In this document: positions 5,354 through 61,712 of the stretch, one piece after another | Position numbering within the stretch: position 1 is the stretch's first letter | Layout of the letters: each line of letters starts with the position of its first letter | Notes under the pieces: model-generated | What the model was told of the DNA's origin: nothing | Databases searched by the model: none | The model's input: the letters and a program-made list of their open reading frames with translations, nothing else | Origin: a virus | Lineage: Duplodnaviria; Caudoviricetes | Direction: 5' to 3' (one strand) | Length of the DNA stretch: 64,000 nucleotides | Virus record (IMG/VR): IMGVR_UViG_3300031867_000021 | Coordinates: 43,603 to 107,602 of that record | Translations under genes and position numbers: made by a program

Positions 5354-5382
5354 TAAACCACCCCTTTCTCCCCGGTGGGCAC

Positions 5383-17239: not shown

Positions 17240-17259
17240 TGCTCAATCACCCTCTCTTA

Positions 17260-17730
17260 TTACTGAATGTTCCGGTTAGTGATAACGATTTCAGCGACGC
17301 CATTCGCGCCAACAGCCGCGCGGAACTTGCAGTTGGTCAGCTCGGTGTTGTCCGTGGAAACCGCGGAGAACTTGCCGTTGGAATCCAGATACACCTTGCC
17401 GCCGACCACGGGAGTGCCGCTCTCGACCTTCACGCAGACAGACCCGCGAACGATGATGGACATGATTTCGCTGTTGCCGTACGCGGCTTCACTTGAGCCA
17501 TAGGTTTCGGGGGTCTTGACGCCGATCCGGGTCGCCACACCAAGGAAGGTCGCCATTCCGGCGCCAGAGGCGTATCCGACAGCGCCCTTGTTGGCCGCAT
17601 CCAGGAAAACAGGCGCGCCGAACGGGATGGCATTATTTCCGACATTGGTCATGGAGATGACAATGTCGTCAACGCTCCGGGAAATCGCACCGGGGAAGGT
17701 GTTGATGAAAGTAGACTGTACTTTACCCAT
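17260..17730 (-). CDS. Capsid cement/decoration protein
   Basis: FPGAISR, IPFGAPV, FLGVATR, RGSVCV; between protease and capsid. Confidence 0.75.
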   Translation of the reverse strand: MGKVQSTFINTFPGAISRSVDDIVISMTNVGNNAIPFGAPVFLDAANKGAVGYASGAGMATFLGVATRIGVKTPETYGSSEAAYGNSEIMSIIVRGSVCVKVESGTPVVGGKVYLDSNGKFSAVSTDNTELTNCKFRAAVGANGVAEIVITNRNIQ

Positions 17731-17763
17731 TTAGATCACTACTCCTTCTTAATCGTCGTCGAA

Positions 17764-19173
17764 TTACTTCTTGTAATTCGCATTGCGGGCAGCCATGATC
17801 CGCTTGCCCAGATCGGCTTCAGCCTTCCGCTGAGCAGCAGCCTTGTCAGAAGCCTTCTTGCGCTGCTTCAGGGCCAGATAATCATTCCGCTTGGCCTTAG
17901 CGGTCATGCCGCAGCTCTTCCGAATGGAAGCGGCAGCAGCATCGGCAGCAGCCTTGCGCTCGGAGGGAGGCAGCTTGGCAATCAGAGGTTTCACCGCCTT
18001 GACGGCAGCACGCATCGCATCACGGGCACGCTTGTCGGTCACGGGGGCGGTTTTGTTCTCGGCCGCCAGAGCCTCTTCCTCGTCCTCATCCTCTTCGTTG
18101 ATTTCTTCGGGATCAACGAAATGGGATTCGGGCTCTTCGGGATCCTCGTCGGGAGCAACCAGCTCTTCCTCGTCGGGATCGGCTTCCTCGTCGGCGTCGG
18201 TTTCGGCCTCTTCGGTCTTTTCCTCGCCCTCGGCCAGTTCGTCCTCCAGCTTCTGCAGAGGATCCTCTTCTGGAGCTTCGTCCAGCAGCTGCTTCGCCAC
18301 CAGCTTCTCCAGCAGACTGATCACCTTGTCCAGCTTGTCCTCATCCACAGCGGGCTTCGCGGCGGGATCCTGAGCTTCCTCTTCATCCTCATCCTCATCC
18401 TCTTCGGTAGCCGCCTTCTGGGTGGGCATCTTCTGCAGCAGATCGGTGATGGTGTCCAGCTTCTCGGTCACTTCCGCGTCCATCGCCTTCGGCTCTTCCT
18501 TCTCGGGCTCAGAAACGATCTCATCAATCGCCTCTACCGCCTCGGCAACTTCTTCGGGCTCAGCGTCCTTCGCAAAGGAAGCCAGCATCTTAGCCAGGAT
18601 TCCATGTTTGTTCTTGCGCATTCTGTGATTTCTCCTTTCGTTGTTTGGGGCAGAGTCTTTTATGCAAACGCGGTGACCGGCTCGCCCTTTGTCCACAATG
18701 GCGATATGGTTACCACGGATTTGCCGTTGAACCAGCTTTCCGTCTTCCTCGCAAAGCTCGTAGTTGTATCCGCAGGAAATCTCCCGCTTTCCGTCCAGAA
18801 CCTTCTGGATGGTGTCAGGGTCGGTGATGAACAGATCGGCAATCAGCATGTTCTTTTCATCCCCGGTTCCCCGGTGAACATTCTGCACATGCCCGCGAGA
18901 AAGCCATTTGGCATTCTCGGCGGTTACACCCTCATCACCGTCCGGGTGGTCATCCGTGACCGGCAGTCCCTCGAATGAGGCCATCGTCGTTTCAGAGAAA
19001 ACCTCTTCCTCCGGGCGATATACGGTGACCATCTCGTCCCCGTCCTGATCCACCTCTTCCGGCAGATACTTTTGCGTTCCTGACCGCGCAATCGGAACAT
19101 TCACGCAGATGAGATAGCCTTCCGGCTCTCGCTTGCGGATGTTGTCAGATATCCGAGTCGCGTAGTACAGCAT
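17764..19173 (-). CDS. DUF2213 prohead protease fused to acidic scaffold; internal scaffold start at 18621
   Basis: PEGYLICVNVPIARSG, PVTDDHP, EISCGY, NHIAIVDKGRAG; internal AAGGAG RBS plus in-frame ATG (MRKNKHG). Confidence 0.9.
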   Translation of the reverse strand: MLYYATRISDNIRKREPEGYLICVNVPIARSGTQKYLPEEVDQDGDEMVTVYRPEEEVFSETTMASFEGLPVTDDHPDGDEGVTAENAKWLSRGHVQNVHRGTGDEKNMLIADLFITDPDTIQKVLDGKREISCGYNYELCEEDGKLVQRQIRGNHIAIVDKGRAGHRVCIKDSAPNNERRNHRMRKNKHGILAKMLASFAKDAEPEEVAEAVEAIDEIVSEPEKEEPKAMDAEVTEKLDTITDLLQKMPTQKAATEEDEDEDEEEAQDPAAKPAVDEDKLDKVISLLEKLVAKQLLDEAPEEDPLQKLEDELAEGEEKTEEAETDADEEADPDEEELVAPDEDPEEPESHFVDPEEINEEDEDEEEALAAENKTAPVTDKRARDAMRAAVKAVKPLIAKLPPSERKAAADAAAASIRKSCGMTAKAKRNDYLALKQRKKASDKAAAQRKAEADLGKRIMAARNANYKK

Positions 19174-19198
19174 TTGCATCACCTTCCTTTCTGGCCAC

Positions 19199-19236
19199 AA
19201 TAAAAGCGCGCCGGTTAAATTCCGGTGCGCTTTATT
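19199..19236. terminator. Bidirectional terminator closing the effector array
   Basis: aataaaagcgcgccgg-ttaaatt-ccggtgcgctttatt. Confidence 0.7.
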
Positions 19237-19271
19237 CCTGTGTATAATCTTAATGGAGTCCTGTTTTTGCT

Positions 19272-19709
19272 TTATTCGCCATCTACATCCATCAGGAAGT
19301 ACAACGCCCTGTTGTACTTTGCCTGACGTCTCACGTCCCGCTCCGTGACTTCAGCAAAGCGGGCCAGATTGCTGTTATCAATCAGGTCGGATATCTTGAC
19401 CGCCCGAGCGATCGGATTCCTTTTGACCCGACACAGATAATCAGACCACATTTCACCCTTCCGATGCGTCAAAGCATCAACCGCATCTGCTATTTCGGCC
19501 CCGAATCCATCTCTGATTTCGTCAAGAGATACTTCCGTGTCCTCGACAACATCGTGCAGCCACCCGACAATCTTTTCCTCAGGATTTTTCAGCCTCTCCG
19601 CAACCCTTGCCGGATGGTTGATATACGGTTTCCCGGCCTTGTCGACCGCCCCGGCGTGAACCTTCCTTGCCAAAGCCTCGGCACCATCCAGAAGCTCAAC
19701 GCAGCCCAT
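19272..19709 (-). CDS. HD-domain small alarmone hydrolase (Aph1/Mesh1-like)
   Basis: HAGAVDKAGKPYINHP, LHDVVEDT, VKISDLIDN. Confidence 0.9.
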   Translation of the reverse strand: MGCVELLDGAEALARKVHAGAVDKAGKPYINHPARVAERLKNPEEKIVGWLHDVVEDTEVSLDEIRDGFGAEIADAVDALTHRKGEMWSDYLCRVKRNPIARAVKISDLIDNSNLARFAEVTERDVRRQAKYNRALYFLMDVDGE

Positions 19710-22348: not shown

Positions 22349-24730
22349 TTAAGTCCAGGACAGACGTATCTCCGGGAACTGAACATTCATTCCGTTAAGC
22401 TCGGAATTGTCGTTCCGATTTACCGGAGCTTGTGCTTTATCCAGAATTTTATCGCAATATTCGAGATTTGGCAACGCGTTGTCTATGCGAAGAAGCTTTG
22501 GCCTCCAGTTTCCTCCAGTCTCGGAATTAAGAGAGATTCTATCTAAGTATTTCTCAATCTCTTCCCCTCTGTGTTCCACAGCCATCTTCGTCGGATTTGG
22601 CTGAGGATCGAACAGGACAAGCTCATCTCCACGCTTTTCGGCAATAATGACATGAGCACCAGCTCTGCGGCCTTTCCAGCAGAATGAGAATGTGAACATC
22701 TGCCCCGGCTTTATACTGTCATTCAGCCATTCTTTGGCACTCTTTGCGTTTAGTTTCTTTTCTGGAACAACATATTCAGGCATCTCACCGGTATCTGGAT
22801 CCATCCACGCGACAGCCTGATTGGCCGCGATTGCGAGCTGGGTTTGATCTGCATCTCCAGCTCTCAATTTGGCACTTACATCATAACCGCGTCGTCTTAA
22901 TGCATACGCAATTACGCAAGTCTGACAATTTCCTCTTTGCTTCTTTGTGGCCACATCCCTAAGCGGATTGGCTTTCCCCTGATCCGCTTCTTCATGAGAC
23001 ATATCTCCGCTTGCTCTTCTTGCAACCCCTGCCACCTCTCTCGGATGATACATCTCCTCAATTTCTTCGGGAGTATGAGTCTCATGCCATGCCTCAATCA
23101 GGTTTCTTCTGGCTTCCGCATGCATTTGACGCTCTTCTTCAGCTCGGGCTTTTTCGGCGGCTTTTTTCTGCTTTTCGAGTTCTTTTGCTTCTTTATTTTT
23201 TTGCTCCTGAGCTTCCGCGCTGCTTGGCTCTGCACCAACCATCATTTTTTCCTGCAACAAAATATAATCGCGAAGCGGTTTCTGAGCGTCCTTTCCGCGA
23301 ATCAGGTTTCCATTGAGGCTTTGCATGATATCTTCCGCAGCATAAAAGTGATCATGAGTGAGCTCGGAAACGCTTGAAGGCTTCTGAAGCATGGCATAAT
23401 CGCGATTCCACAAATAAGCGTTCCTGCTTCTGCGGCCTATATCAATATACTTATTGACTGTATCCAGCAAAAGCTCTTTTTCCTGGTCTGTGAGCCTGTC
23501 AAGCTCTTCCTGCCTGACAGGCCCTCCCATCATCGACCCGGCATCGCCATAGATCCTGCTTCTGAGCTGCCAGACAGCCCTCATTCCGTAATAGCTGAGT
23601 TCGTTCGGATTCATCTTGTCGTAGGCAACCTTGTCGATGAAATCCTGATTCAGCTTGGCAAACTTCTCTGCTGTATACGCAGATGTATTCTCTGGCTGCC
23701 TTCCAAGCGCACTGGAAAGATAGCTTTCCATCATGCCGCGTCTGGTCGGCTGATACCAGCTGTAATCTCCGTTTTTCGGAGTTTCAGGAGCAACAGGCTC
23801 CGGCGGCGGCGCTGGCCGTTCCTTAGCTCCGGCATTGTACAATATTTCATCTGGAACTTCGTTTCCTGAAGTCGGACAATTCAGCGCCTTGGCCTTTATG
23901 TCCATCCAGACAAAAGCATCATCTTTCTCCCATCTGGTGAACCCTTCTCCGTCATCTGGAACTTCAGAGCCGTTCGCCTCAATCATGCCATATTTGTTTT
24001 TCAGATAATCGACAACCTTCTTGTCGGAATCCGAAAGCTTTTCATCCATGTACTCCTTGGCATTTTCCGGCCACCCACGCCCTTCGGCTATGAAGTCGGT
24101 AAGCTCTTTTCGTTTTTCGAGCGGCTGGCACTTCATGACGAAGTCTTCCGGGGTCATATCTTCCGTGAACTTCTCGAGCCCGGAATCCCGCAGCACATCG
24201 TCACGCTCTGTGGCGGTCAGCATTCCACTTGTCCACAGTTTATTCAGCCTGTTCACAACTTCCTTGCTGTGGTTCATGTCTCTTTTAATGTCGCCGATCG
24301 CCTTTACCGCTTCGATCTGCCGTTCCCCGGAAAGGTTCTGAAGCCAGTCCTTTTTCTTCGCTCCGGAAGCCCCACCGGAACCGGAAGAACCGCCAGAAGA
24401 ACTCCACGGGCTGCCAGACGTACCGCCCGAGCCCGGTAGAGCAACCTTCGGATGCTTCGGCCGCATAGGTTCTCCACTCTTTTTGACGCCCCAGGATTCT
24501 CCGATCCGCTTCCCATTGAATCTTCCGCCGAATCCAGCCTTGATCTCCCCTGTAGAAGTCTCAAGCCGGAAATGCTTTCCCTCTTCAGAAGTCCGCCAAA
24601 CCTCTTCGTCGCTGGCAACCTCTTCAATGGCTTCCGCATCCAGTCCAAGCAATTTGAGGGCGAAAGGCAGATACTCACTCTTCGGATTAGCCTCTGCAAA
24701 ACCCAGGAACATCTTTCCGATTGCACTCAC
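22349..24730 (-). CDS. Tagged effector 4: C-terminal papain-fold (glutamine deamidase-like) toxin domain
   Basis: NCQTCVIAYALRRRGYDV...GAHV...FDPQ Cys-His-Asp triad; tag WRTSEEGKHFRLETSTGEIKAGFGGRFNG; GGAGGTG RBS plus GTG at 24730. Confidence 0.8.
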   Translation of the reverse strand: MSAIGKMFLGFAEANPKSEYLPFALKLLGLDAEAIEEVASDEEVWRTSEEGKHFRLETSTGEIKAGFGGRFNGKRIGESWGVKKSGEPMRPKHPKVALPGSGGTSGSPWSSSGGSSGSGGASGAKKKDWLQNLSGERQIEAVKAIGDIKRDMNHSKEVVNRLNKLWTSGMLTATERDDVLRDSGLEKFTEDMTPEDFVMKCQPLEKRKELTDFIAEGRGWPENAKEYMDEKLSDSDKKVVDYLKNKYGMIEANGSEVPDDGEGFTRWEKDDAFVWMDIKAKALNCPTSGNEVPDEILYNAGAKERPAPPPEPVAPETPKNGDYSWYQPTRRGMMESYLSSALGRQPENTSAYTAEKFAKLNQDFIDKVAYDKMNPNELSYYGMRAVWQLRSRIYGDAGSMMGGPVRQEELDRLTDQEKELLLDTVNKYIDIGRRSRNAYLWNRDYAMLQKPSSVSELTHDHFYAAEDIMQSLNGNLIRGKDAQKPLRDYILLQEKMMVGAEPSSAEAQEQKNKEAKELEKQKKAAEKARAEEERQMHAEARRNLIEAWHETHTPEEIEEMYHPREVAGVARRASGDMSHEEADQGKANPLRDVATKKQRGNCQTCVIAYALRRRGYDVSAKLRAGDADQTQLAIAANQAVAWMDPDTGEMPEYVVPEKKLNAKSAKEWLNDSIKPGQMFTFSFCWKGRRAGAHVIIAEKRGDELVLFDPQPNPTKMAVEHRGEEIEKYLDRISLNSETGGNWRPKLLRIDNALPNLEYCDKILDKAQAPVNRNDNSELNGMNVQFPEIRLSWT

Positions 24731-24751
24731 TGCTTTCACCTCCGTTTTGCC

Positions 24752-24783
24752 ATAAGAAAAGCCCGGCACTCTCGTGTCGAGCT
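24752..24783 (-). terminator. Cassette-boundary terminator copy 2
   Basis: ataagaaaagcccggcac-tctc-gtgtcgagct. Confidence 0.6.
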
Positions 24784-24801
24784 ATGGTTAAATTCCTCTG
24801 C

Positions 24802-25017
24802 TTAAGCGTTTTTCTCTATCCAGTCTTTTGCAGCATCTGGAACTTCAACATTTTGGTCTTCAACATAGTCCATATATGGATCAAAACGAAGAAACTGGTT
24901 CGGTGCAACACCGAAGCCACCAAATGTTTTTCCGTTCCCGTAATAATATCTTCCATCTGGCAATGATACAAGCACTACGCCACGGTCGTCTTTGTAGAGC
25001 ACCTTTAATCCTTCCAT
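24802..25017 (-). CDS. Candidate immunity protein for effector 3
   Basis: 71 aa; start overlaps the effector 3' end. Confidence 0.55.
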   Translation of the reverse strand: MEGLKVLYKDDRGVVLVSLPDGRYYYGNGKTFGGFGVAPNQFLRFDPYMDYVEDQNVEVPDAAKDWIEKNA

Positions 25018-27188
25018 CTGATTTCGACCCCCCGTTGCTTTGCTAAACTCTCAATTTGTGCCCTGTCTTGGGAATTCTTGGGAATTTCTAAATATTCGAT
25101 ATCAGATGTTTGGATTCCTCCGTGAAACTGCAACTCTACATAATCCGTTGCGGTTTTTCCACTCTGGGCTATTTCGCTAAAAGTCCTTTCTGTGCGCTCA
25201 AGAACCTCTTTTGGTAGGCTTGCTCCAGAAAACGGATTCATTCCAAGAGAGTATATCTTTGGATCCGTCACAAGTGTTGGGACTTGCGAATTTCCAAGCT
25301 GCTTCTGCTGCAGGCTATCCCCAACGGTGAATGTCGTCCGGGTTTTTACATTGTCTTTTTTAAAGACTATTCTACAGTCGCCGTACATCTTGGCGCGTTC
25401 TGCGTGATCAAGAAAACCATATAGCTCATATTGATCATCGCCGATTTCGAGAGCATCCCCGCCATTGAAGAGATCCACGGCCAACGATTTCCGCATTTGA
25501 ATATCTTTGTGCCCATTCGATTCTCCGGTTTCAATCTGTGACTTCATTCTCCCATCTTGAAGGATCCCTAAAATGGCATTCGACTTTGTTCTGGCAGAAA
25601 AATCATGCTTATCCAGGGCATCCTTCAGGATTCGCTCATACTCCGGCGTCCGCTTTGAGTATGTATCGATTGCTGCTGCCTGTTCAGGGCTCGTTGAGGA
25701 ATATCCTCGTTTCACTTCATCGATATAATTATCATACGATTCTTTGTAAATGGGCATCAGCTCATCGTAAGCCTTCATCGTTGGAGTTTCCCGATAGCTT
25801 GGAGCCGTAACAGCAGTTTCACTGGCGCTTGCACTTTCTGTTCCCGCCGATTCATTTTGGCTTTCAGTCTCAGATTCCAACTTTGGCTGCTCTGCCTGCG
25901 TCTCTTTTTTCCCTTTGGAATTTTCCGGCGTGAAAGTATACTCAAACCCATACTCAGCGGCATGCTGCTTATAAAACTCATGGAACGGCTCGGTTTCCAG
26001 CCTTCGGATCTCGTCTTTCCGCTCCTGCGCAGCCTTTTTAGAAAGCTCATCATAACCAGATTTATCGAAATATGCCTGCAGGATCTCATTTGAGGCTCCG
26101 GCGTCCTTCATCTTGACCCATGTTTGAGCAATTTCTTCAAGCTTTCGGCGAGTTTCGTTCCCCTTCAGGTTTGCATCTGCTTGTTTCATCAGATCCAGGA
26201 CTGAAACCTCGGCGGGAACGGCTTTCTCCAAAGCATCCCTCATCCCGAGCCATCCACCGTTCACTTCTCCCCTGCCATACCTCTGATTCCTCAGCGTATA
26301 AGTCCCTTCAGGCGTGCTGACACGAATTTCAGTCGCTCCGTAGCCGAAATCATCCAGATCGTCATAGGAGAATGTCCCTCCGGCCGGATGATTGTGAAGC
26401 GAAATCGCTCCCGGCAGATGTTCTCGATTGGTTCCAACCGTCATGCCGACAGAATGCTTATCGCCCTTGGCCTGCGCCCTGATTTCACCATCTGGGCCAA
26501 CGATGAAAGACTGCTCGTTCTTGAGATTGGCGATCCTCTTTTCAATCTTCCTGAGCGCCTTGTCCTGCTGCGGGGTATTAGTGGGAAAAGGCTTTGCGTC
26601 CTGATGCTCTTCATCCCACAAACCGCGCTTTTTAAGCTCTTCCCGGCAAGCTTCCATCTTGGCCTGCGTCTCCGCCATCGAATCAAGATAGCTCTTTCTC
26701 ACGCCAGCATATTCCTGCTTTTTGGTCTCAGGAAAGGTTTCGTATTCCTTCAGAAATTTTTTGGCCTTTTGCAGGTCTTCGTTGTGTCTTCCGAACGCTC
26801 TGCCAACACCCGTATCTCCAAAGCCTTGAACCTTTTGCCGCAATGATTCCACGTTAGCTTTCTGACTTTCGGTCAGCGCCGGAGCCTTCGGCGTTTCCAC
26901 GGTTTTTGGAGCCGCTGCAGCCTGTTTTCTGCCGGCGGCGCTATTTTTGAAGACTGAACCAAGCTTTTCACCGTTGAACTTTCCACCGAACCCGGCTTTA
27001 ATCTCTCCGGTCGTGGTTTCCAACTTAAAATGGCGCCCCTCTTCTGAAGTGCGCCATACTTCCTCGTCGGCAGTTGTTTCTTTTTGACTATTGGCATCAA
27101 AGCCAAGCATTTTTAAGGCAAGATGTAGCGATGCGGTTCTGGGGCTTGTCTTTGAATACTCATAAAACAATCGTCCAATGGTTTTCAT
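25005..27188 (-). CDS. Tagged effector 3: JAB/MPN-like domain plus C-terminal DUF3626-like (putative ADP-ribosyltransferase fold) domain
   Basis: EQSF...HNHPAGGTFSYDD JAMM-like motif; KSQIETG..YG..TTFTVGDS..YVELQFHGG; tag WRTSEEGRHFKLETTTGEIKAGFGGKFNG. Confidence 0.7.
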   Translation of the reverse strand: MKTIGRLFYEYSKTSPRTASLHLALKMLGFDANSQKETTADEEVWRTSEEGRHFKLETTTGEIKAGFGGKFNGEKLGSVFKNSAAGRKQAAAAPKTVETPKAPALTESQKANVESLRQKVQGFGDTGVGRAFGRHNEDLQKAKKFLKEYETFPETKKQEYAGVRKSYLDSMAETQAKMEACREELKKRGLWDEEHQDAKPFPTNTPQQDKALRKIEKRIANLKNEQSFIVGPDGEIRAQAKGDKHSVGMTVGTNREHLPGAISLHNHPAGGTFSYDDLDDFGYGATEIRVSTPEGTYTLRNQRYGRGEVNGGWLGMRDALEKAVPAEVSVLDLMKQADANLKGNETRRKLEEIAQTWVKMKDAGASNEILQAYFDKSGYDELSKKAAQERKDEIRRLETEPFHEFYKQHAAEYGFEYTFTPENSKGKKETQAEQPKLESETESQNESAGTESASASETAVTAPSYRETPTMKAYDELMPIYKESYDNYIDEVKRGYSSTSPEQAAAIDTYSKRTPEYERILKDALDKHDFSARTKSNAILGILQDGRMKSQIETGESNGHKDIQMRKSLAVDLFNGGDALEIGDDQYELYGFLDHAERAKMYGDCRIVFKKDNVKTRTTFTVGDSLQQKQLGNSQVPTLVTDPKIYSLGMNPFSGASLPKEVLERTERTFSEIAQSGKTATDYVELQFHGGIQTSDIEYLEIPKNSQDRAQIESLAKQRGVEIRWKD

Positions 27189-27213
27189 CGTTATCACCTC
27201 CCCACAAAAACGC

Positions 27214-27242
27214 TTTACGCAATTTTGTCTATGTGCTATACT
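27214..27242 (+). promoter_or_regulatory. Antisense-oriented promoter
   Basis: TTTACG-17-TATACT with extended -10 TG. Confidence 0.6.
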
Positions 27243-27244
27243 TT

Positions 27245-27353
27245 AGGCATCAAGGGGAAACCCTGCAGGCCGTAACAGGCCCCCGACCAAACGGCACGGT
27301 CGAGGGAACGAGTTACGGCTGAAGCTGACGCCATGCCTCTTGCCAAGGATGGC
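27245..27353 (+). ncRNA. Candidate structured small RNA downstream of the CdiA-like nuclease gene
   Basis: Nested stems aggcat/atgcct, ggg-gaaa-ccc, ggccgtaac/gttacggct, cgacc/ggtcg directly after a promoter. Confidence 0.5.
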
Positions 27354-28919
27354 TCAGCGTGAAAGCTCCGATTGTTTCGGAGCTTTTCTTGCTTTATATT
27401 CAAGGCATTTATATGCCCCGTCTTTGTCGATTATTAAAACGCTCAAGTCCTGTTTTGAGCGTTTCGTGAGAGCCTTTTCGATTTTATTTTCTGCTTCTTC
27501 GATAGTGGCGCCACACGCACTTATATCAAAAATCAAGCCTCTGCTGTTTGGGGCAATTTGATTTAAGCCACTCCGAATCCTCAAGTCGAACGCATTTTGT
27601 GAATTGCTTTCCGGCGTTTTCAGATCCCAAAGTCCACCGCGCCAGAAATAATCAGGGTTGCTTTCATCTCTCAAAAAGTTTTCAGACAGAACAATCAAAT
27701 TCCCGCCGAATAGCTGATGCAATCTTTTCCCCATTTTTATCTCTGCGGCACTATGTTTTTTATCAACCCTGGTCATAACATAGAATGCGCCGGAACCTGG
27801 TTCTGCTTCCTTCTCGAACTCTTCCGTTTTGTCTCTTATTTGTTTTTCGGCTTTTGTGCCAGATTCTTTTCCCTGAGTATCGTATGTGGTTTCCGTCTCC
27901 CGCATGGTTGCATCAGCCGGCGCAACCTGCCGGCCTATAATCGCGACTGGAATAGTCTCGACCCCGTTCATCATGGCAGCCAGAGCCCTGTGCCGACCTT
28001 CCTGATTTTCTGTCGCATAGTCCAGATAAGGAATCGGGAATTTCTCCCCGTTTTCCATCAGATCGGCGTATTTATTGACCTTATAGGCTTCGGTTCCCGC
28101 AACAGTGTTTTCCAAGGTGCTGTTCGTGAAAATCTCGAAAGCGCATCTTTCCAGATATTCTTTCGGGCTCATCTCGACAACCTTGGCGCTTCCGTTCTTC
28201 AATTTTTCCCGCAGAGCCGGAACATCCGATTCCAGCGTGAAGCCCTCGAAATCTTTCCTTGTCGTTTCCTTAAGCTCCGGGTTGCCCCACTCGGCGATTT
28301 CATCAGAACGCTTCTGACGCTTCAGCTCATCCATTTTCCCGCCGTACTCTTCGGCCTCCTGCCCGGCCTTCTGAGACTCAGCAAAGCAGTCATCATATTC
28401 CTTCTTGAGCTGTTTGCCCTTCTCGGTATACCAGCCGAAGAGCCCGGCATATTGCGGCCCCATTGACTTCGCGTCGTCATCCGGGTACTCGATTTCATTC
28501 TTCAGCTCTCTGCTGATTTCCAGGAACCTCTTTGAGGCAGCGTCTTTCCTCTTCGTGGCATCAGCCCACTTGGTTCTTGCCGCTTCAAAATCCGGGTCAT
28601 TGATGAGGTTCTTCTCTCCCACGACAGAGGAAATCATTTTCGCTGTGCTTTCAGGCCGGATCCTCTTCGGCTTAGCTGCAGCTGGTTTCTTCGCAGACTG
28701 GCCGCCGCTGAAAGCTTCCTTCAGCGTCTCGCCGTTGTGCTTCCCTCCAAAACCAGCCTTGATCTCACCGGTACCAGATTCGAGCTTTATATGATGGCCT
28801 TCCTCGGTTGTTCTCCAGACTTCTGCATCATGTCCGAAAAGCTTCACCAGGAACTGAAGGGCCTTGTTCTTCCCTTCCCTATGCGCATAGGCTTTGTACA
28901 GCTCAGCTCTGATTCCCAT
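27354..28919 (-). CDS. Tagged effector 2: ParB/Srx-like domain plus C-terminal CdiA_C-like PD-(D/E)xK tRNase domain
   Basis: QEGRHRALAA; NPDYFWRGGLWDLKTP...IRSGLNQ; tag WRTTEEGHHIKLESGTGEIKAGFGGKHNG. Confidence 0.72.
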   Translation of the reverse strand: MGIRAELYKAYAHREGKNKALQFLVKLFGHDAEVWRTTEEGHHIKLESGTGEIKAGFGGKHNGETLKEAFSGGQSAKKPAAAKPKRIRPESTAKMISSVVGEKNLINDPDFEAARTKWADATKRKDAASKRFLEISRELKNEIEYPDDDAKSMGPQYAGLFGWYTEKGKQLKKEYDDCFAESQKAGQEAEEYGGKMDELKRQKRSDEIAEWGNPELKETTRKDFEGFTLESDVPALREKLKNGSAKVVEMSPKEYLERCAFEIFTNSTLENTVAGTEAYKVNKYADLMENGEKFPIPYLDYATENQEGRHRALAAMMNGVETIPVAIIGRQVAPADATMRETETTYDTQGKESGTKAEKQIRDKTEEFEKEAEPGSGAFYVMTRVDKKHSAAEIKMGKRLHQLFGGNLIVLSENFLRDESNPDYFWRGGLWDLKTPESNSQNAFDLRIRSGLNQIAPNSRGLIFDISACGATIEEAENKIEKALTKRSKQDLSVLIIDKDGAYKCLEYKARKAPKQSELSR

Positions 28920-28932
28920 GCGCATCACCCCT

Positions 28933-29772
28933 TTACGAAATCTTCCCGAACTTCTTTTTAATCTGGTTCTTCGTCCAGTAACCTACTTTTCCGTGATAAT
29001 GCAGCCTGACCGAATCCGGCAGGTTCCTGATATCAACAACCGGCTCCTGATAGCACCGGCAGTTGAAGGTATTTCCCGCGTGATACCGTCCATAAGAACT
29101 CTGACCCGCACCCGGAAACAGAGCTTCAGGGTTTGGCGGATCATCATAGAACACGAGAATTCCATCCATTGAGCCGTGGGAATGTCTCGTGCGCTCATCA
29201 TGGCAGGAATGCCAGATATAAGCCTTGATTCCAAGGTTCTCGGCTCTGGCCTGCGTGAGTGCCGCATTTGCTTTGCCGCACTCTGTCCGCGCGATGCACT
29301 TCAGATTTCTGGCAATCTTCTCCGGCATGATCTTCCGAAGCTCTTCCTCAATCTCTTCCGGCCGCCGGCCCTTCTGCGTCTCCCGCTCGGTGTAGGCGGT
29401 TATATAAGCGGCCCATTCCATCGGGACTGTCTTGATGTACTTTGAGTTTTCGGCAATCAGCTCTTCAACCCGCCTGCCGACAGGCCCTTTCATCTCTTCC
29501 ATCAGGGCTTTGTACATCTCCCGGCCGTAGGTGTTGCGGAGAACGGCTTCCCGCCAGGAATGAACAGACTCATCTCTCTCCCGCTTGACCATGTTTCCGA
29601 CAACCTCATCCACCCGCTGCCCAAGGGTCAGCCGATGAACCCACTCTTTCATCTTCTGGGTAACGTTGCCTGAATTGATGGCCCCGGATCTTGTCTGCTG
29701 CGAGATCCCGGAAAAGATTTTGCACAGGTTCTTCCAGAATGATCGTTCCGTCGAACGTTTCACGGCAATCAT
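28933..29772 (-). CDS. MuF/SPP1 gp7-like minor head protein without toxin extension
   Basis: IARTE, YIWHSCHDERTRHSH, HAGNTFNCRCY. Confidence 0.9.
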   Translation of the reverse strand: MIAVKRSTERSFWKNLCKIFSGISQQTRSGAINSGNVTQKMKEWVHRLTLGQRVDEVVGNMVKRERDESVHSWREAVLRNTYGREMYKALMEEMKGPVGRRVEELIAENSKYIKTVPMEWAAYITAYTERETQKGRRPEEIEEELRKIMPEKIARNLKCIARTECGKANAALTQARAENLGIKAYIWHSCHDERTRHSHGSMDGILVFYDDPPNPEALFPGAGQSSYGRYHAGNTFNCRCYQEPVVDIRNLPDSVRLHYHGKVGYWTKNQIKKKFGKIS

Positions 29773-30067: not shown

Positions 30068-30100
30068 ATAAGAAAAGCCCGGCGGCAATCCGTCAGGCTT
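30068..30100 (-). terminator. Cassette-boundary terminator copy 3
   Basis: ataagaaaagcccggcgg-caat-ccgtcaggctt. Confidence 0.6.
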
Positions 30101-30126
30101 CTCCCTGGAACTCTATTTATACTTTT

Positions 30127-30358
30127 TAAGCGGGTGAGGATTTGCACCTCACATGATCCATTCGTTATTGCTCTATAGTGCCAACTTAAGGTTTGTTTTG
30201 CTCTTCAGCTTGCCGCCCTTGCCTCTTTTAGTTTATAAAACTATACCAGTCTCATTGGTTCTGGAAGGTCTTATCAGTTGGATCACATCACGCAACTCCA
30301 TGCAGGGAGCGACCCTTGAATGTCTTTACACTACGTCTACCTGTTCCGCCACCGCTCA
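30127..30358 (-). ncRNA. tRNA-like RNA (acceptor, D and T arms) with a large insert in place of anticodon/variable arms
   Basis: 5' TGAGCGG TG GCGGAACAGGTAGACG ... GTGAGG TGCAAAT CCTCAC CCGCTTA 3'. Confidence 0.6.
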
Positions 30359-30375
30359 ATAAAGTATTATTGAAT

Positions 30376-30607
30376 TTAAAGAAGCATGTCCACCGATGAA
30401 CATGCTTTTTCGACCGGGTCAAATAATTCTCCCCGGCTCTGGCATAGCTTTTCAACCCTGCACAGGTCTTCGTAGCCGCTTCGGCCTATTGCAAGATCGA
30501 ACTCCCTGCGGAGTTCTTCCAAACTCATATTGCGCCCGCAGCCGAATTCATCCTGATACTTATGAACCACTTCATCCCTGAACTCTGCGTATGATTTCGT
30601 GGCTCAT
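30376..30607 (-). pseudogene. Possible frameshifted paralog of the upstream candidate immunity gene
   Basis: RBS-linked ATG at 30607 is one base out of frame with the ORF ATKSYAEFRDEVVHKY...KACSSVDMLL. Confidence 0.35.
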
Positions 30608-30632
30608 CACCCCCCCCATGACCGGCAGCCGC

Positions 30633-30881: not shown

Positions 30882-33800
30882 TTACACCTCCATGCTGTCG
30901 TCCCGAATCTTTTTCGCCTTGGAATAATCTTCCTCAGGTTTGTGAGAAGCCACATATTCATCACAGTTCTTTCCGTGCGCTTTCCATATTTCTTCCCTGC
31001 TGCGCCCGGTATACTTGAAGAATACAACCGGCTCTTTCTGGTCTCTGGTTCTGTCCCAATCCGGCGGCCTTATCCCTTCGATATCAGCAAACTCGCAATA
31101 GCTTGTCGGCTCGAATCCGTTCTTTGTGTAAAACTCGTACAAACCGCCAAACGCATCAAGTTTATTTCCGCCCTTCATTCTTGCGAACTCAAGGAGCTGA
31201 CTTCCTGTGACTCCACGATCTCCGGGATGTTTGCACACGCTCACGATATCGCCATCGTGAACCGCAACAGCAGAACCGCCCTTTGTCGTGAAGCACTGCA
31301 TTTTCGCATAATCCTCCACGGAATAGGTTCCATCCACACGCCAGGATTTATCTGGCTGCACGTCCTGCACCGCTTTCTTTGCCGCATGGAAAGTATCGTA
31401 AAACTTCTGCGGCTCAGTTTGCTGGAAATTATCCGGGTTCAGCGGGGCTTTCGTTCGTCCGCTCCCGGTTCCACTTCCATTATACGCCGAATTATTCTGA
31501 TTTACAATACTTTCGGACGTATTTTCTCCACCCGCATTATACTGCGTTTCCGGCTCTCTGGCAACGGGCGCCATCGGAACGTTTTCGCCCCAGAACATGG
31601 ACTGCTGTCCAGGAACCTCCACCCGTTTCTCGACTCCCGCATACTTTTCAAGCAGATCGTCCGAGAAGTTCGTTTCAATCTCCGCGCCCAGGAGCTTTGC
31701 CTGGAGCTGAATTCTGGCGATTACCGCTTCCGGGTGATCGCTTTCCCATTTTTCTTCCTGAGCGAACGGGACATCACTGTACTCTTCAGTGATGTTTGCC
31801 AGAATGTCCTGTTCTCTCGGAGTCAGACGCTCTGCCCACTGGGCAGGTACTGACTTAAGCCCGAACTCATTCGTAGCTCGAATTTCACCATTTCTGGCCT
31901 GATTCCATTCATCGGAATACTGAACTGAATTGGCCAGATTGTTGAGCGCATTATCCGCTTCGTCCAGATCAACAGCAGGATTCTCAAGAACCTTTTTGGC
32001 ATTTTTTCGGGCATTTTCATAATCCCGAAGCTCCGTCTTTATGGTTGCTGCCTTTTTCTCGCTTCCATCTGAATACTTGCTGAAACTTACGGGAATATCC
32101 GGCATCTTTGCCTTGGGAGGCGTGACCTTCGGCGGAGCGGCGACCTTTGTCCCCTTCGCTCTGGCCTTGGATCCGCTGCCGGATCCCCACTGCTCACCAA
32201 GCTTCTTACCATTGAACTTGCCGCCGAAACCAGCTTTGATTTCGCCGGTTGAAGTTTCCAGCTTGAAGTGCCGGCCTTCCTCGCTCGTCCTCCACGCTTC
32301 AGCATCAATGCTGAACAGATTCTGAACAAACTTGGCCGTCTGCTCCCGGCTGTGGTCGGCAGCGTACTGCTTAATCAGCCTGACCCTCTGGTCCGAAAAA
32401 CCGGAATAATCCGGCTTATCCCGACCGATGAGAGACTTGACCTTTTTGCGCACCCAATCAATGACCCCACTGTTGGGCTCTTTGCCCTCTCTGGCCTCTT
32501 CGGGCTTTCGGGCGGGAGTTTGGTCATTCTCCTGCTCTGCCTGCTCTTTGGGCTCATTCTGGGCTTCCGCAGGCACGCTCTTCTGCGTGGCCTTCGGCTC
32601 CTCTTCCGGCTTCTCCGCTGGCTCGGCTTCAGGTTTTGAGACTGGCTTCTGTTCCGGCTTCATTTCCGGTTTTTCCGGCCTTTCCTCCGGCTTTACTTCC
32701 GGCTTTTCCTCCGTGGCTTCAGGCTTCTCTTCCTCTGGCCCTTCTTCAGGCGGCATCATACCGCCCATGGCGGCCATCGGATCCATTCCTCCGCCGGGAC
32801 CACCATCTGGCCCCTCAGGTCCTTCAGGACCGCCCGGCCCCATGCCGCCCATCATGCCGCCCATGGGGTCGCCCATGCCTTCGCCTTGATCAACCTCGGT
32901 TTCGGCGCTTTCAACAATTTCATCCGTAATGGATCCCCATGCGCCGACATCCTTGCCGCTCTTCTGCAGTTCTATCAGAGCGGTCTGCTGCGAGATCAAC
33001 CCGGCAGAGAACGCATTAATCACGGTTCCGGTCACCTGCGAGATAATATTCGCCCTTTCGGAAGGCGTAGTCACCTGCAGAGGCTCGAACACGACATGCA
33101 TGCCATCCGGGATCTTCCCCCAAAGACTCATGCACATGACCGGCAGCAGCTTCTCAATCGCCGGGCGCAGGTTGCGCTCCTGCAGCTGAGCCAGCATTTC
33201 ATAATAGTTCTTCATGTCCGATTCTCCGGTGGCATTCATGCCCTGCGGAGAACGTCCATACAGCTTGGTCGCCGGAATTTCGGCGGCACCTGCCATATCC
33301 ATCATGAAGGACTCATAGATTTCAGACAGACCGGAGAAGGAATAGGGATGCTGTTCGTACCCGTCCTGCGATCCCATGATCATCATGCCGAAAGAATTCC
33401 GGTAACGGTTTTCTTCCTCAATGCTCTCAATGATCGCCTGCTTCTGCTTCTCCGTGCCCATGCCCATGATTTCACCAAAATCGGCCATTTTAAGCACGCC
33501 GACATTGGCCTGAAACACGAGCTGAGCAATATTCGCGCTGGTCGCATTTCTCTTCTGAAGCTCTTCATAAACGTGCTCCAGCTCAGATGCTCCCCAGTAG
33601 CTTTCCGAAACCTCTTCCATGATCGGAAGCATCCGTCCCCGGAACATCAGGAGCCGGGAATGATGAATCCGCATGGTCTGGTTTGTCTCGTTATTCAGCC
33701 GGACTGTGTAATATTTCGGATATCCGAACTCGATATCGTCCATATCCTCTTCCAGCTCAACAGAAGGATCCAGTCCGCTCGTCCGATCTACGACAATCAG

Positions 33801-34292
33801 GCCCCGGAAGCAACCCGGCACCAGATCGTCATAATCCAGCGGTTCATCCAGCATATCCTCCTGCCCCTTGATCACGATCACGGCAGCAGCACCGCCATAA
33901 AGCCTCGCCCAGCGCAGCGCATTGGTGATTTCCTGCTTCACGCTGTGCTTGGATTCCAGCTCAGCCAGCTCATCCAGCTTATCCTGATCAAGATTGGAGG
34001 AAATCGTATACCAGGAGCGGGTCATATCTTCACAGGGGGTGTCAATAATCCGCTTCGCGATCCAGTTTTCACGGTAAGCCACGGTCAGCGTCTCGTAATC
34101 CCGGCTGATATAATTCCGCTCGAAATCGTTCGCCTGACTTAGTAATGAAGCTTCACCGAGATAGGCCAACCTGTTAATGAACCCGTCATTGGCAGACAGG
34201 ATTTTCAGAGGCAACGCGCCACGCTTGGTCGCATCCGCGCCCTGATTCTGAATCTGTCTCGCACGAATGTTGCGTCTTTTTTTGCTCGACAT
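30882..34292 (-). CDS. Portal protein (DUF1073-like) fused to low-complexity linker, shared tag and GNAT-like domain (effector 1)
   Basis: WIAKRIIDTP, WARLYGG, IHHSRL, AGAAEIPATKLYGRSPQGMNATGESD; internal WRTSEEGRHFKLETSTGEIKAGFGGKFNG; C-terminal GDIVSVC..GSQLL..GGNKLDAF..LYEFYTKNGF. Confidence 0.88.
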   Translation of the reverse strand: MSSKKRRNIRARQIQNQGADATKRGALPLKILSANDGFINRLAYLGEASLLSQANDFERNYISRDYETLTVAYRENWIAKRIIDTPCEDMTRSWYTISSNLDQDKLDELAELESKHSVKQEITNALRWARLYGGAAAVIVIKGQEDMLDEPLDYDDLVPGCFRGLIVVDRTSGLDPSVELEEDMDDIEFGYPKYYTVRLNNETNQTMRIHHSRLLMFRGRMLPIMEEVSESYWGASELEHVYEELQKRNATSANIAQLVFQANVGVLKMADFGEIMGMGTEKQKQAIIESIEEENRYRNSFGMMIMGSQDGYEQHPYSFSGLSEIYESFMMDMAGAAEIPATKLYGRSPQGMNATGESDMKNYYEMLAQLQERNLRPAIEKLLPVMCMSLWGKIPDGMHVVFEPLQVTTPSERANIISQVTGTVINAFSAGLISQQTALIELQKSGKDVGAWGSITDEIVESAETEVDQGEGMGDPMGGMMGGMGPGGPEGPEGPDGGPGGGMDPMAAMGGMMPPEEGPEEEKPEATEEKPEVKPEERPEKPEMKPEQKPVSKPEAEPAEKPEEEPKATQKSVPAEAQNEPKEQAEQENDQTPARKPEEAREGKEPNSGVIDWVRKKVKSLIGRDKPDYSGFSDQRVRLIKQYAADHSREQTAKFVQNLFSIDAEAWRTSEEGRHFKLETSTGEIKAGFGGKFNGKKLGEQWGSGSGSKARAKGTKVAAPPKVTPPKAKMPDIPVSFSKYSDGSEKKAATIKTELRDYENARKNAKKVLENPAVDLDEADNALNNLANSVQYSDEWNQARNGEIRATNEFGLKSVPAQWAERLTPREQDILANITEEYSDVPFAQEEKWESDHPEAVIARIQLQAKLLGAEIETNFSDDLLEKYAGVEKRVEVPGQQSMFWGENVPMAPVAREPETQYNAGGENTSESIVNQNNSAYNGSGTGSGRTKAPLNPDNFQQTEPQKFYDTFHAAKKAVQDVQPDKSWRVDGTYSVEDYAKMQCFTTKGGSAVAVHDGDIVSVCKHPGDRGVTGSQLLEFARMKGGNKLDAFGGLYEFYTKNGFEPTSYCEFADIEGIRPPDWDRTRDQKEPVVFFKYTGRSREEIWKAHGKNCDEYVASHKPEEDYSKAKKIRDDSMEV
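31479..31564 (-). promoter_or_regulatory. Two tandem internal promoters in the portal extension
   Basis: TTGCCA-17-TATAAT (31564-31536) and TTGTAA-17-TATAAT (31507-31479). Confidence 0.55.
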
Positions 34293-35558: not shown

Positions 35559-36070
35559 TTGGCATCGCTCCCGTCTTGGCTGCTGAGCTGTGCAAAGGCA
35601 TCATCCAGGGCAGAATAACCGCTGATGCCCTGCTTCAGGCTCTCTTTTTCGACCTCCAGCTTCTGCTGTTCGATGAGCATCTTCGGATCCTGTCCAAGAA
35701 CCTCAAGAACCTTTTCAGCCGCCCGGGTATCCCCTTTCTGCGCCTTCTGCGACAGAGCAACAGCGGTCACTACGGCATTGGTGATGTTGTCCGTCTCCGG
35801 GTTCATTCCGTAATGAATCAACTGGTCTCTGACGGCGTTGGACAGTTGGGGCTTGCTTCCCCAAACCATTTCCAGAATGCTTCGGAAGCTTCTTTCTTCC
35901 CTGCGAACCTGCTGTGACCTTTTGCCACCCTTGGATTGAGCTTTTCTCGCCTCCGGGTCGCCACTCTTGAACTGAGTCTTGACGCCCTTCTTCAGGTTTT
36001 CATTGCTCTTCTTCCGGCTCGCTGCCACCACTTCCGGGGGCTTCTTCTTAGTCGCGCCCACGATGATCAC
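35555..36070 (-). CDS. terS: Terminase small subunit
   Basis: NENLK...KGGKRS...KAQKGDTRAAE; overlaps terL start. Confidence 0.75.
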   Translation of the reverse strand: MIIVGATKKKPPEVVAASRKKSNENLKKGVKTQFKSGDPEARKAQSKGGKRSQQVRREERSFRSILEMVWGSKPQLSNAVRDQLIHYGMNPETDNITNAVVTAVALSQKAQKGDTRAAEKVLEVLGQDPKMLIEQQKLEVEKESLKQGISGYSALDDAFAQLSSQDGSDAK

Positions 36071-37100
36071 CCGGCCTTAACCACTGCCGCTCAACCTCAT
36101 GAGCAACCCTCGCCATCATGAGGGGCGGAACGCTCATTCCGCAGACATACTGAACAGGTTGGTCGATGAAGTCATAATCCTGCGGGAAAGTCTGCACATT
36201 CACAAAATCCTGAGCGCTCAGCCCTTCGCCATCAGCCATCCGGTAATAGCTTCCTCCGCTGGCAATGGTTCCACATACCTGCTCATCATGCCAGATGTAA
36301 TTGGTGAAGCCCTTATTCTTTCCGAACAGCCGTTCGTTGATATCGGACAGCCTGTAGTCCGTTGGCTTTCTCGCATCCAGGAGCGCCTTGATGCGAGATC
36401 CTTCCTTCAGCGGGATCCCATGTTCTGAGCGAACCTCCCTGAACTTAATGGGGCGCTCGTTGAAGGAAAGCTTAATCCTCGGATAATCCAGATCATCCCT
36501 GTGCGCCACAAAGAACACTCTCTCCCGCCTCTGGGGAACTCCCATGGTCGCGCCATTCAGCAGGAACATCTGCGGCTCGTACCCGGCCGCCCGAAACGCC
36601 TTGAAGATTTCGTTGACATAACCCCGGGCATTCCCGGTGGTCAGCCCCTTCACATTCTCGGCGATGACAACCTTCGGCTTCAGCTTCTGAGCGATCTTAA
36701 TGAACCAGAAGAACAGATCGTCAAGCCGCTGCATCTTCTGGCCTTCGCGGAACTGCTTCTCTGTGTTCCAGCCTTTCTCGCGCTCTCCAGCAGAGCTGAA
36801 CACAGAGCAAGGCGGACTTCCATCCAGGATATCCAGATTGAACAGTTCGGGCGGGAGCTTGTCGTCTTCAATCGCTCCGAAATCCCGAACGTCCATGTTG
36901 TAGTTGAACTTCGGATGATGATTTGCGACATAGATTTTGTTCATGGCATGGTCTATCTCGCAATTTCCAATCACCGTGTATCCCGCGAGCTTATATCCCA
37001 TGGAACTACCGCCGCCGCAGGAGAAACACGAAAAAACGTTGAGGCCGTTTTTCTCTACGTCAGGCAGATCCTTGAGATACCATTTCCAGTTAAGCTTCAC
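36048..37100 (-). CDS. DNA (cytosine-5) methyltransferase
   Basis: FSCGGG, GSPPC, ENVKG, QRRERVF, QTFPQDY, GMSVPP; probable GTG start at 37100. Confidence 0.92.
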   Translation of the reverse strand: MKLNWKWYLKDLPDVEKNGLNVFSCFSCGGGSSMGYKLAGYTVIGNCEIDHAMNKIYVANHHPKFNYNMDVRDFGAIEDDKLPPELFNLDILDGSPPCSVFSSAGEREKGWNTEKQFREGQKMQRLDDLFFWFIKIAQKLKPKVVIAENVKGLTTGNARGYVNEIFKAFRAAGYEPQMFLLNGATMGVPQRRERVFFVAHRDDLDYPRIKLSFNERPIKFREVRSEHGIPLKEGSRIKALLDARKPTDYRLSDINERLFGKNKGFTNYIWHDEQVCGTIASGGSYYRMADGEGLSAQDFVNVQTFPQDYDFIDQPVQYVCGMSVPPLMMARVAHEVERQWLRPGDHRGRD

Positions 37101-37572
37101 TGAAATGGAACCCGCATTCCGGACACTCATATTCGAAGGCCTCATCTCCGAAATCGTCCTCGTTGAATTCCATGCTGGTATCAATGCGCTCGTTACGCTC
37201 GGCTTTCTCGTTCTCGAAACCGAACTGCAGCATATCGATATCATCACCGATAAAGTCCATGGCTTCGGTCAGCAGCGGCTCATCCCAGACAGCCATCTCA
37301 GCCACCCGGTTATCAACGAGCCGGAACGCCCTGATTTCGTCCTCCGTGAGATCGTCCGCTGTGACCGTCGGCACTTCCTTGAGTCCCAGCTTCCGGGCCG
37401 CCAGAGCTCTGGTGTGACCCGCCACAATGACGTTGTCCTTATCCAGGATGATCGGATTCAGGAAGCCGAACATCTGAATACTGGCAGCCACCTTATCCAC
37501 AGCCTTCTCCACGTCTCTCGGATTGCGGATATATGGCGTGATTTCATCCAGCGATCTGTAAACGATATTCAT
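37090..37572 (-). CDS. ParB N-terminal domain protein with C-terminal CPECG
   Basis: PYIRNPR, FGFLNPI, AGHTR, LVDNR. Confidence 0.85.
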   Translation of the reverse strand: MNIVYRSLDEITPYIRNPRDVEKAVDKVAASIQMFGFLNPIILDKDNVIVAGHTRALAARKLGLKEVPTVTADDLTEDEIRAFRLVDNRVAEMAVWDEPLLTEAMDFIGDDIDMLQFGFENEKAERNERIDTSMEFNEDDFGDEAFEYECPECGFHFSEA

Positions 37573-61441: not shown

Positions 61442-61712
61442 TCCATTTCACCGCCTGTCCGCATCGTCTGCAAAACCTGTCTCCATAGTCTATCGGCATT
61501 TTGCATTTGCCACACTGATACCACCAACTACCATGTCCGTCATGCTCTTCTATGCCACTAACAGTCGGCTCAACCGCTTCCTGCTCTTTCAGCAAGGCAA
61601 GGACGGCTTTTGCCGTCTCTTGTACCTCGCTGTCGCTGTACCACTGCTGCCAGTCATCCTGCGTCAGCCCTTCCAAGCAGCCCATTACTGTCAATCTATC
61701 CATCATTCCCAC
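61386..61712 (-). CDS. Zn-ribbon small protein (LKEQ family)
   Basis: LLKEQEAVEP..CGKC..FCRRCGQAVKW. Confidence 0.6.
   Translation of the reverse strand: MGMMDRLTVMGCLEGLTQDDWQQWYSDSEVQETAKAVLALLKEQEAVEPTVSGIEEHDGHGSWWYQCGKCKMPIDYGDRFCRRCGQAVKWNANQQCQGNPEVEQREDR

Follow-up and report, generated by a model that had tools for sequence, protein, structure and literature searches.

It seems secure that a 232-nucleotide (nt) element in a virus of the class Caudoviricetes is a gene of a widespread family of phage and prophage RNAs that derive from tRNA-Leu and have no anticodon. The element occupies positions 30127-30358, on the minus strand, of the 64,000-nt stretch of DNA that we analyzed (hereafter the window), which corresponds to positions 43,603 to 107,602 of the viral record IMGVR_UViG_3300031867_000021. 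The family is missing from Rfam and from searchable papers: neither ARAGORN nor Rfam 15 detected any member, and full-text literature searches, with strings of the motifs included, returned no description of an RNA family with its hallmark, a G at position 55 in the T loop.

The element had been annotated initially, from the sequence alone, as a tRNA mimic in which a large insert replaces the anticodon arm, and the features named at that time (a 7-base-pair [bp] acceptor stem, a Leu-type D arm, a T arm with the loop TGCAAAT, and an insert of about 180 nt with a tgatcca/tggatca stem) are all present on the minus strand (Table 1). The two ends of the gene pair as UGAGCGG/CCGCUUA, with one G2-U71 wobble and with A3-U70 as pair 3:70. 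The D arm fits the pattern of the family (U8-G9 followed by GCGG-AAYAGGUAGA-CGY) with a G10-U25 wobble. In the minimum-free-energy (MFE) fold the insert is closed by the stem UGAUCCA (30285-30279)/UGGAUCA (30160-30154), and it ends on its 3' side in a UCAU junction. The annotation was also right that there is no anticodon arm and no encoded CCA. ARAGORN found neither a tRNA nor a transfer-messenger RNA (tmRNA), whether in the window or across the entire 107.6-kb viral record, and the trailer of the gene is AAAAAG. In a search of the window with Rfam 15 nothing reached its gathering score, and at E ≤ 10 there was no match to a tRNA, a tmRNA, or an intron, only noise.

To relate the element to other sequences, we used a covariance model (R1) that was built from a MAFFT alignment (A2) of 27 short members of the family other than the element itself. 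R1 matched the element as two halves, the 3' half with 35 bits (E = 8.4e-8) and the 5' half with 30.9 bits (E = 1.3e-6), and matched nothing else in the 64 kb. Thus, the element is more than a chance resemblance. R1 also cross-matches real class II tRNAs at 35-45 bits, and only matches above 60 bits were taken as clear members. Its matches included Leuconostoc phage LN34 (80.3 bits), Bacillus phage SPP1 (NC_004166, positions 6647-6755; 77.9 bits), Listeria phage B054 (62.9 bits), Bacillus phage phi3T (KY030782, record positions 50198-50323; 61.7 bits), Listeria phage LM 4-11-1 (55.1 bits), and Bacillus phage SPbetaL1 (52.5 bits). A scan of 151 Bacillota genomes with R1 was uninformative as to prevalence because of the scores of class II tRNAs.

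Altogether, about 115 distinct members were collected from phages and prophages. When membership was defined by two sequence motifs alone, with no requirement for pairing, there were 114 distinct members; the other counts given below are for a set of 116. The exact 20-mer of the D arm was present in 53 viral contigs, of which about eight carried it in ordinary tRNA-Leu genes and about 40 in genes with the architecture of the window element, these latter having total lengths of 89-232 nt. The pattern of the T arm matched at least 120 bacterial genome contigs. Among the matches listed, most were from Bacillota (Lachnospiraceae, Oscillospiraceae, Paenibacillus, Bacillus, and Leuconostoc) and a minority from Bacteroidota, Planctomycetota, Acidobacteriota, and others. 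A related and sharply defined family, close in kind to RNA1 and RNA2 of T5 and RNAC and RNAD of T4, for which annotation and reviews still give no function (PMC3014915), is therefore common, in more than 120 bacterial species and in dozens of viral contigs, and it is represented in such tractable models as SPP1, phi3T, and the dairy phages of Leuconostoc. At the least, annotation pipelines miss the RNA gene and call open reading frames (ORFs) across it. Gene 10 of SPP1 (6525-6755, minus strand), which bears a flag for a conflict with its conceptual translation, overlaps the plus-strand RNA gene and is probably a mis-called ORF. Similarly, a hypothetical coding sequence of phi3T, phi3T_57 (4104-4256 of the locus), overlaps the 3' end of the RNA gene.

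The upper body of the RNA is conserved in a manner that points to selection on its structure. Among the 114 motif-defined members, acceptor positions 1-5 were paired in 86%-98% of cases, as compared to 43%-67% when partners were shuffled, and all four types of Watson-Crick pair were seen at each of these positions. The three variable pairs of the T stem were paired in 98%-100% of the same members, with compensatory changes, and the D stem covaries as well. In alignment A2, 98.1% of cells were paired (76.8% after shuffling, and 35%-49% in slid controls), both sides changed in 11 of 16 pairs, and the covariation score was 0.624 as against 0.181 for shuffled alignments, a value that none of 500 shuffles reached. 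Constant throughout the family are the final two pairs of the acceptor stem (GG/CC), U8-G9, and a D arm with A14, A15, G18, G19, and A21. Also constant are a YYAU junction, in which the U is placed as U48 would be, a T stem of 6 bp with an invariant closing G-C pair, and the loop UGCAAAU, in which U54, C56, and A58 are retained and position 55 is G. Thus, the RNA keeps the nucleotides that form the tertiary core of class II tRNAs (U8, A14, A15, G18, G19, A21, U48, U54, C56, and A58), and its acceptor and T stems form an invariant stack of 7 + 6 bp.

These findings bear on whether the element is simply a decayed tRNA-Leu pseudogene that suffered a random insertion and has no function, an outcome that the initial annotation had envisaged. 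A few members do look eroded, in that the D loop of the SPbetaL1 member has lost its GG and a 168-like SPbeta prophage has no element at all. More than 100 distinct members from several phyla, however, share the same derived features (G55, the 6-bp T stem, and YYAU) together with compensatory changes. The homologs thus contradict decay, their scaffold being both conserved and covarying, and we regard this explanation as extremely improbable.

In contrast to the scaffold, the inserts are hypervariable. Their length varies from 24 to 225 nt (median, about 75 nt), and 106 of the 116 members have non-redundant inserts. As a population the inserts fold better than their dinucleotide shuffles (mean z of -0.82, p about 1e-13). 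The MFE folds typically display a linker of about 10 nt or a mini-hairpin on the 3' side of the D arm and then a long arm. The basal stem of this arm is the last helix of the insert, and in 62 of 116 cases it is separated from the T stem by 2 nt. The shortest members (79-85 nt, with inserts of 24-31 nt) likewise have no anticodon arm. A 24-nt stretch of the 180-nt insert of the window element had no exact match in the viral contigs.

Might the insert, instead, be a tag-encoding segment or an intron? The element resembles tmRNA in its tRNA-like acceptor stem and T arm and in having a large insert that separates the D region from the T arm, and so it could be imagined as a miniature analogue of tmRNA in which the insert encodes a tag peptide. 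Indeed, the start-less frame to which the initial annotation drew attention does exist (30232-30173): it has 19 codons (TKRGKGGKLKSKTNLKLAL, then a stop) and ends in LKLAL. Unlike tmRNA, however, the element has no G3:U70 pair (a pair found in just two of the 116 members), no conserved tag frame, and a full Leu-type D arm. In addition, inserts as short as 24 nt can be too short for a tag, no frame is shared among members, and neither ARAGORN with its -m option (0 of 116) nor Rfam recognized a tmRNA. We consider the chance that the RNA is a tmRNA analogue to be negligible. Alternatively, the gene could be an interrupted tRNA-Leu from which the insert is spliced, by itself or by a nuclease together with the RNA ligase RtcB, to yield a decoding tRNA. 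What speaks for this is that in one subgroup of carriers a gene for RtcB precedes the terminase gene, about 2 kb upstream of the RNA gene (L029 4559-5761, and also L026, L028, and L031). RtcB homologs were found in only three of 106 loci. Against splicing, there was no match to Intron_gpI at E ≤ 10; members with the shortest inserts have no anticodon arm either; the position of the last insert helix, so close to the T stem, leaves no room for exon sequence in the folds mentioned above; and ARAGORN, which otherwise called no tRNA in any of the 116 members, gave no consistent tRNA with introns allowed, making one off-register call or, with a lowered threshold, 24 calls with unrelated anticodons. 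An intron is, in our judgment, highly improbable. All three of these readings (pseudogene, tmRNA analogue, and intron) were rejected.

With no anticodon loop or arm, the RNA cannot read codons. We think it on balance probable that the product of the gene is a stable, non-decoding RNA derived from tRNA-Leu, which is processed as a tRNA and acts in trans as an accessory RNA, with the insert as its cargo or specificity part. According to this proposal, the gene would be transcribed from a weak promoter of its own or by read-through, and RNase P and RNase Z or exonucleases would cut the transcript at the ends of the acceptor stem, as they do for tRNA, possibly followed by addition of CCA. The RNA would then accumulate in stable form and act in trans. 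The constant tRNA chassis would supply processing, stability, and possibly docking to a tRNA-binding factor of the host, whereas the variable arm, for instance a decoy or an aptamer directed against a component of the host or of its defenses, would serve as cargo or confer specificity. If the variable arm is indeed a functional module, then phages would have a new route for delivering RNAs, namely, via the tRNA-processing pathway of the host.

Several observations weigh against this proposal. The ends of the RNA, its stability, the addition of CCA, and its action in trans are all features that we infer. In 77% of members the nucleotide at position 1 is U or A, an uncommon feature among RNase P substrates, and the 13-bp coaxial stack is one pair longer than that of a tRNA, so that the sites of processing may differ. 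The discriminator lacks conservation: of the 116 members, 58 have A at this position, 37 have U, 13 have C, and 8 have G. Except for the YYAU end, no motif is common to the inserts of the 116 members, and the inserts could be a tolerated expansion rather than cargo. No significant complementarity was found between the window insert and the genome of its own phage, nor any between the phi3T insert and a B. subtilis genome. Finally, the folding energy of the whole window element is no better than that of shuffled sequence (z of -0.21), and folding energy alone would not have flagged it.

The rival explanations, arranged in descending order of weight, are a processing signal that acts in cis, a decoy based on the upper body of the RNA, a carrier of leucine, and then the intron, pseudogene, and tmRNA readings considered above. 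The third of these supposes that CCA is added to the RNA, that leucyl-tRNA synthetase (LeuRS) charges it, and that the 13-bp stack bars elongation factor Tu, with the result that leucine is delivered to a non-ribosomal reaction. Charging by LeuRS does not depend on the anticodon or on the variable arm of tRNA-Leu. The nucleotides of the tertiary core of tRNA-Leu are conserved, the 7 + 6 bp stack is invariant, and the window element has A73, all of which would fit this role. On the other hand, A73 is present in only 50% of members, no conserved gene for an aminoacyl-transferase lies nearby, and CCA is never encoded (0 of 116 members). A role as a leucine carrier is accordingly one that we hold to be very unlikely.

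The genomic context of the family is informative about how the RNA is made. Twenty-five of the 116 members (22%) lie within 600 nt of real tRNA genes, nearly all of them on the same strand, and several members in tRNA arrays are separated from the adjacent tRNA by spacers of only 1-10 nt. In phage records that start at the terminase gene, the element is found near the end of the record, which is the usual place of phage tRNA genes. The location in tRNA arrays, the short spacers, and the shared strand are the behavior of a tRNA-type gene and suggest that RNase P and RNase Z would process the transcript; tRNA-type processing of the ends, as the initial annotation had proposed, is therefore plausible. 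Elements of the family share the orientation of the neighboring genes and often adjoin genes for terminase, portal, or head proteins, a terminase homolog being present inside the locus in at least 18 of 77 bacterial loci and at least 13 of 29 viral loci. No conserved protein partner emerged from all-against-all clustering of the flanking ORFs or from Pfam searches of the ORFs immediately upstream, and the upstream neighbors were heterogeneous (HU, HTH, DUF3850, and proteins of unknown kind).

Such a setting invites the idea that the element is a punctuation mark or stabilizer acting in cis, that is, a tRNA shape that directs cuts by RNase P and RNase Z in the late mRNA between the portal and MuF genes, or that protects an mRNA end, the excised RNA having no role. 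This idea accords with the presence of many members in late or packaging operons, where they point in the same direction as the terminase, portal, or head genes, and also with the finding that members of the family have no promoter in common at a fixed offset and that a terminator-like hairpin directly precedes some members. Yet a fifth of the members are located in tRNA arrays, in which real tRNAs already provide cleavage sites, and at six loci two different copies lie side by side. Nor would a bare cleavage site explain the strict conservation of the D/T elbow and of G55 or the presence of structured, hypervariable inserts. Moreover, kin phages express the same operon without the element. 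We consider a function solely in cis doubtful.

Comparison with close relatives demonstrated that the element behaves as an accessory gene, which is gained and lost and whose insert is swapped. Kin of the window phage were recovered with the portal protein as query (portals 47%-76% identical; the MuF protein as query gave nothing), and no family element was found in 13 kin loci. In the window phage, an inserted block of about 520 nt separates a conserved 81-aa ORF, at its stop codon, from the terminator of that ORF, which is conserved as well. The block includes a promoter-like site just upstream of the RNA gene with 9 of 12 matches to the consensus; it is weak evidence, about one such site being expected by chance in the region. 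A second example comes from SPbeta-like phages, in which the slot that follows the HU-like gene yonN differs from phage to phage: phi3T has a member of 126 nt at this site, another Bacillus prophage a member of 79 nt, and SPbetaL1 the eroded member referred to above, of 136 nt, whereas in the 168-like SPbeta prophage of B. subtilis nothing is recognizable and the element has been lost. The acceptor stems of the members in the yonN slot are identical and their inserts cannot be aligned.

The yonN slot lies near a start site that has been published for YonO, at genome position 2225998 (PMC5467207). This site is about 380 nt downstream of the stop codon of yonN and downstream of the slot occupied by the phi3T element. 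We considered and rejected the possibility that the family element is the "unannotated non-coding RNA" of that report (PMC5467207). Given that the site is downstream of the slot and that the 168-like SPbeta is without the element, that RNA is probably something else. We also noticed in phi3T a match to the Rfam DUF3800-VIII RNA (44.7 bits, above the gathering score; 5361-5426 of the locus), about 1.2 kb downstream of the RNA gene. This match may represent the "unannotated non-coding RNA" that lies close to the start site of YonO.

An accessory distribution of this kind would also fit the idea that the RNA is a decoy whose constant acceptor/D/T body titrates a tRNA-binding host defense or toxin, possibly tRNases, the insert being merely tolerated. 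A sporadic distribution is typical of counter-defense genes, the constant part is extremely conserved while the inserts share nothing, and in the window a protein with a CdiA_C-type domain is encoded 1.2 kb downstream of the element. The association with toxin genes is not conserved, however. Kin with the same portal-MuF module do not have the RNA, and members elsewhere have other neighbors, so that the toxin context does not explain the element, and the link to neighboring tRNase and effector genes drawn by the initial annotation is not supported. Likewise, its GNAT-type neighbor was not borne out, Pfam having found no GNAT domain among the window ORFs tested. A decoy that acts stoichiometrically would presumably have to compete with the entire cellular pool of tRNA, and the tandem copies with different inserts suggest that the inserts matter. 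We judge a decoy of this sort unlikely.

Returning to the proposal of a trans-acting RNA with a functional insert, we tentatively raise, as a possibility to which we attach limited weight, a more general form of it. The tRNA-Leu chassis might be a plug-in platform that the tRNA enzymes of the host excise and stabilize and that carries a swappable arm (an aptamer, decoy, or sponge) directed against host defense or physiology, with modules recombining at the sequences of the D arm and T arm. If so, it would constitute an RNA-based accessory or counter-defense system of an undescribed type and would explain RNAs of the T5 RNA1 type.

RNA1 of T5 (rna1, NC_005859, 30501-30644), which like RNA2 is annotated as a "tRNA-like stable RNA with unknown functions," is the closest described thing. 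As in the family, its acceptor stem joins one end to the other and is followed by a D arm of the tRNA-Leu type (CCGGAAUUGGUAGACGG), an insert of about 75 nt, and then the T arm. It resides in the tRNA cluster of the phage, as do 22% of family members; the record that contains the window has no tRNA genes. RNA1 differs from the family in its T loop, which is the canonical UUCAACU (with U55), in its T stem, which is shorter, and in its junction, which is CGUG where the family has YAUG, and the host of T5 is Gram-negative. R1 scored RNA1 at 20.6 bits, no better than the 20.4 bits of the real tRNA-Leu of T5, and common descent with the G55 family is thus not established. Class II tRNA-Leu (RF00005) has the identical D arm (the 20-mer), the same tertiary-core nucleotides, and a 7-bp acceptor stem. 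It is set apart by its anticodon arm, by U55 in place of G55, and by a T stem of 5 rather than 6 bp, whereas the family has a discriminator that is not conserved and an insert of 24-225 nt and is missed by ARAGORN and the Rfam tRNA model. The species 1 and 2 RNAs of T4 (rnaC and rnaD) are small stable RNAs of unknown role from a phage tRNA cluster (PMC3014915, PMC9697503). Although rnaC ends in a tRNA-like T arm, neither RNA has a Leu-type D arm, and R1 found nothing in the tRNA region of T4; they are the same kind of thing but a different family. A relationship to bacterial Y RNA (YrlA) was considered as well and rejected, in that the ends of the element form an acceptor stem, and not a Ro-binding stem like that formed by the ends of a Y RNA, and there was no Rfam match.

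In Listeria phages we encountered the prophage small RNA (sRNA) rliG (RF02415), which occupies the same slot, between the late activator and terminase genes. It is expressed during lysogeny, and virions can be produced without it (PMC7397523). In phage LM 4-11-1 (L201 1264-1536) the 5' domain of rliG (80 bits) lies directly upstream of a family member, and in the rliG of A118 (L202 7655-8026) a small three-way junction and a terminator are found instead of the tRNA-chassis element. The slot before the terminase gene in Listeria phages thus seems to exchange RNA modules, and rliG is not a homolog but either a neighbor or an alternative resident of the slot. In addition, the plus strand of the window at 30110-30232, opposite the RNA gene, has a weak match (19.7 bits as against a gathering score of 100) to the Listeria sRNA rli48. 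The mirror image of the rli48 consensus has an acceptor-like stem, a 6-bp hairpin with the loop UGAAACU, and a long insert, and rli48 might be a diverged relative that was annotated on the other strand.

Table 1. Features of the window, with positions counted from its first nucleotide
Feature	Position	Strand	Basis or remark
Whole RNA gene	30127..30358	minus	Sequence; both halves match R1; architecture is that of the family
Acceptor stem, 5' strand (UGAGCGG)	30352..30358	minus	Pairs 7/7 with 30127-30133
U8 and G9	30351-30350	minus
U8-G9 and tRNA-Leu-type D arm (GCGG / AACAGGUAGA / CGU)	30333..30351	minus	20-mer common to phage tRNA-Leu genes and about 40 family members
D arm (GCGG-AACAGGTAGA-CGT)	30349-30333	minus	Sequence
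Hypervariable insert, 180 nt, in place of anticodon and variable arms	30153..30332	minus	Sequence, fold
Capped hairpin AGUGU-AAAG-ACAUU (5-bp stem, AAAG cap) where the anticodon stem would begin	30319..30332	minus	MFE and centroid folds
T arm (stem GUGAGG/CCUCAC, 6 bp; loop UGCAAAU; G at position 55)	30134..30152	minus	Sequence
Acceptor stem, 3' strand (CCGCUUA)	30127..30133	minus	A73 next, then no CCA
Block of ~520 nt (64-aa ORF, hairpin, tRNA-like gene)	30113..30632	minus	Absent from kin phages; tblastx synteny and DNA alignment
64-aa ORF upstream of RNA gene	30376-30570	minus
Terminator-like hairpin ending the 64-aa ORF	30382..30407	minus
Promoter-like TGGACA-18 nt-AATACT	30363..30392	minus	Consensus scan; 3' edge 5 nt before RNA 5' end
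Hairpin and U-tract ~25 nt downstream of RNA (terminator of 81-aa ORF)	30069..30103	minus	Conserved in kin loci L187, L195, and L199 (alignment)
C5 cytosine DNA methylase, upstream of terminase	36048-37247	minus
Portal protein, 1136 aa, unusually long	30882-34292		Portal domain only residues 69-421
MuF-like gene	28933-29772	
Large ORF ending in CdiA_C domain	27354-28928	minus
Large ORF ending in DUF3626	25005-27197	minus
Large ORF ending in glutamine deamidase toxin domain	22349-24769	minus
HD_4 (RelA/SpoT-type HD) protein, 145 aa	19272-19709	minus	Between toxin array and DUF2213 protein

As for the wider surroundings of the element, the MuF-like gene together with the three ORFs for toxin-domain proteins (22349-28928) looks like a polymorphic toxin array of the MuF type. 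Genes for a DUF2213 protein (in our interpretation the prohead protease), for a cement protein, and for the major capsid protein lie further downstream of the element.

Finally, we note that the last 2,435 bp of the viral record (61566-64000 of the window, corresponding to 105168-107602 of the genome) are an exact direct repeat of genome positions 16908-19342, at a distance of 88,260 bp, and that the record opens with 16.9 kb of unique sequence. The repeat may be the terminal repeat of a genome of about 88 kb to which extra sequence is joined, or it may be an artefact of assembly.

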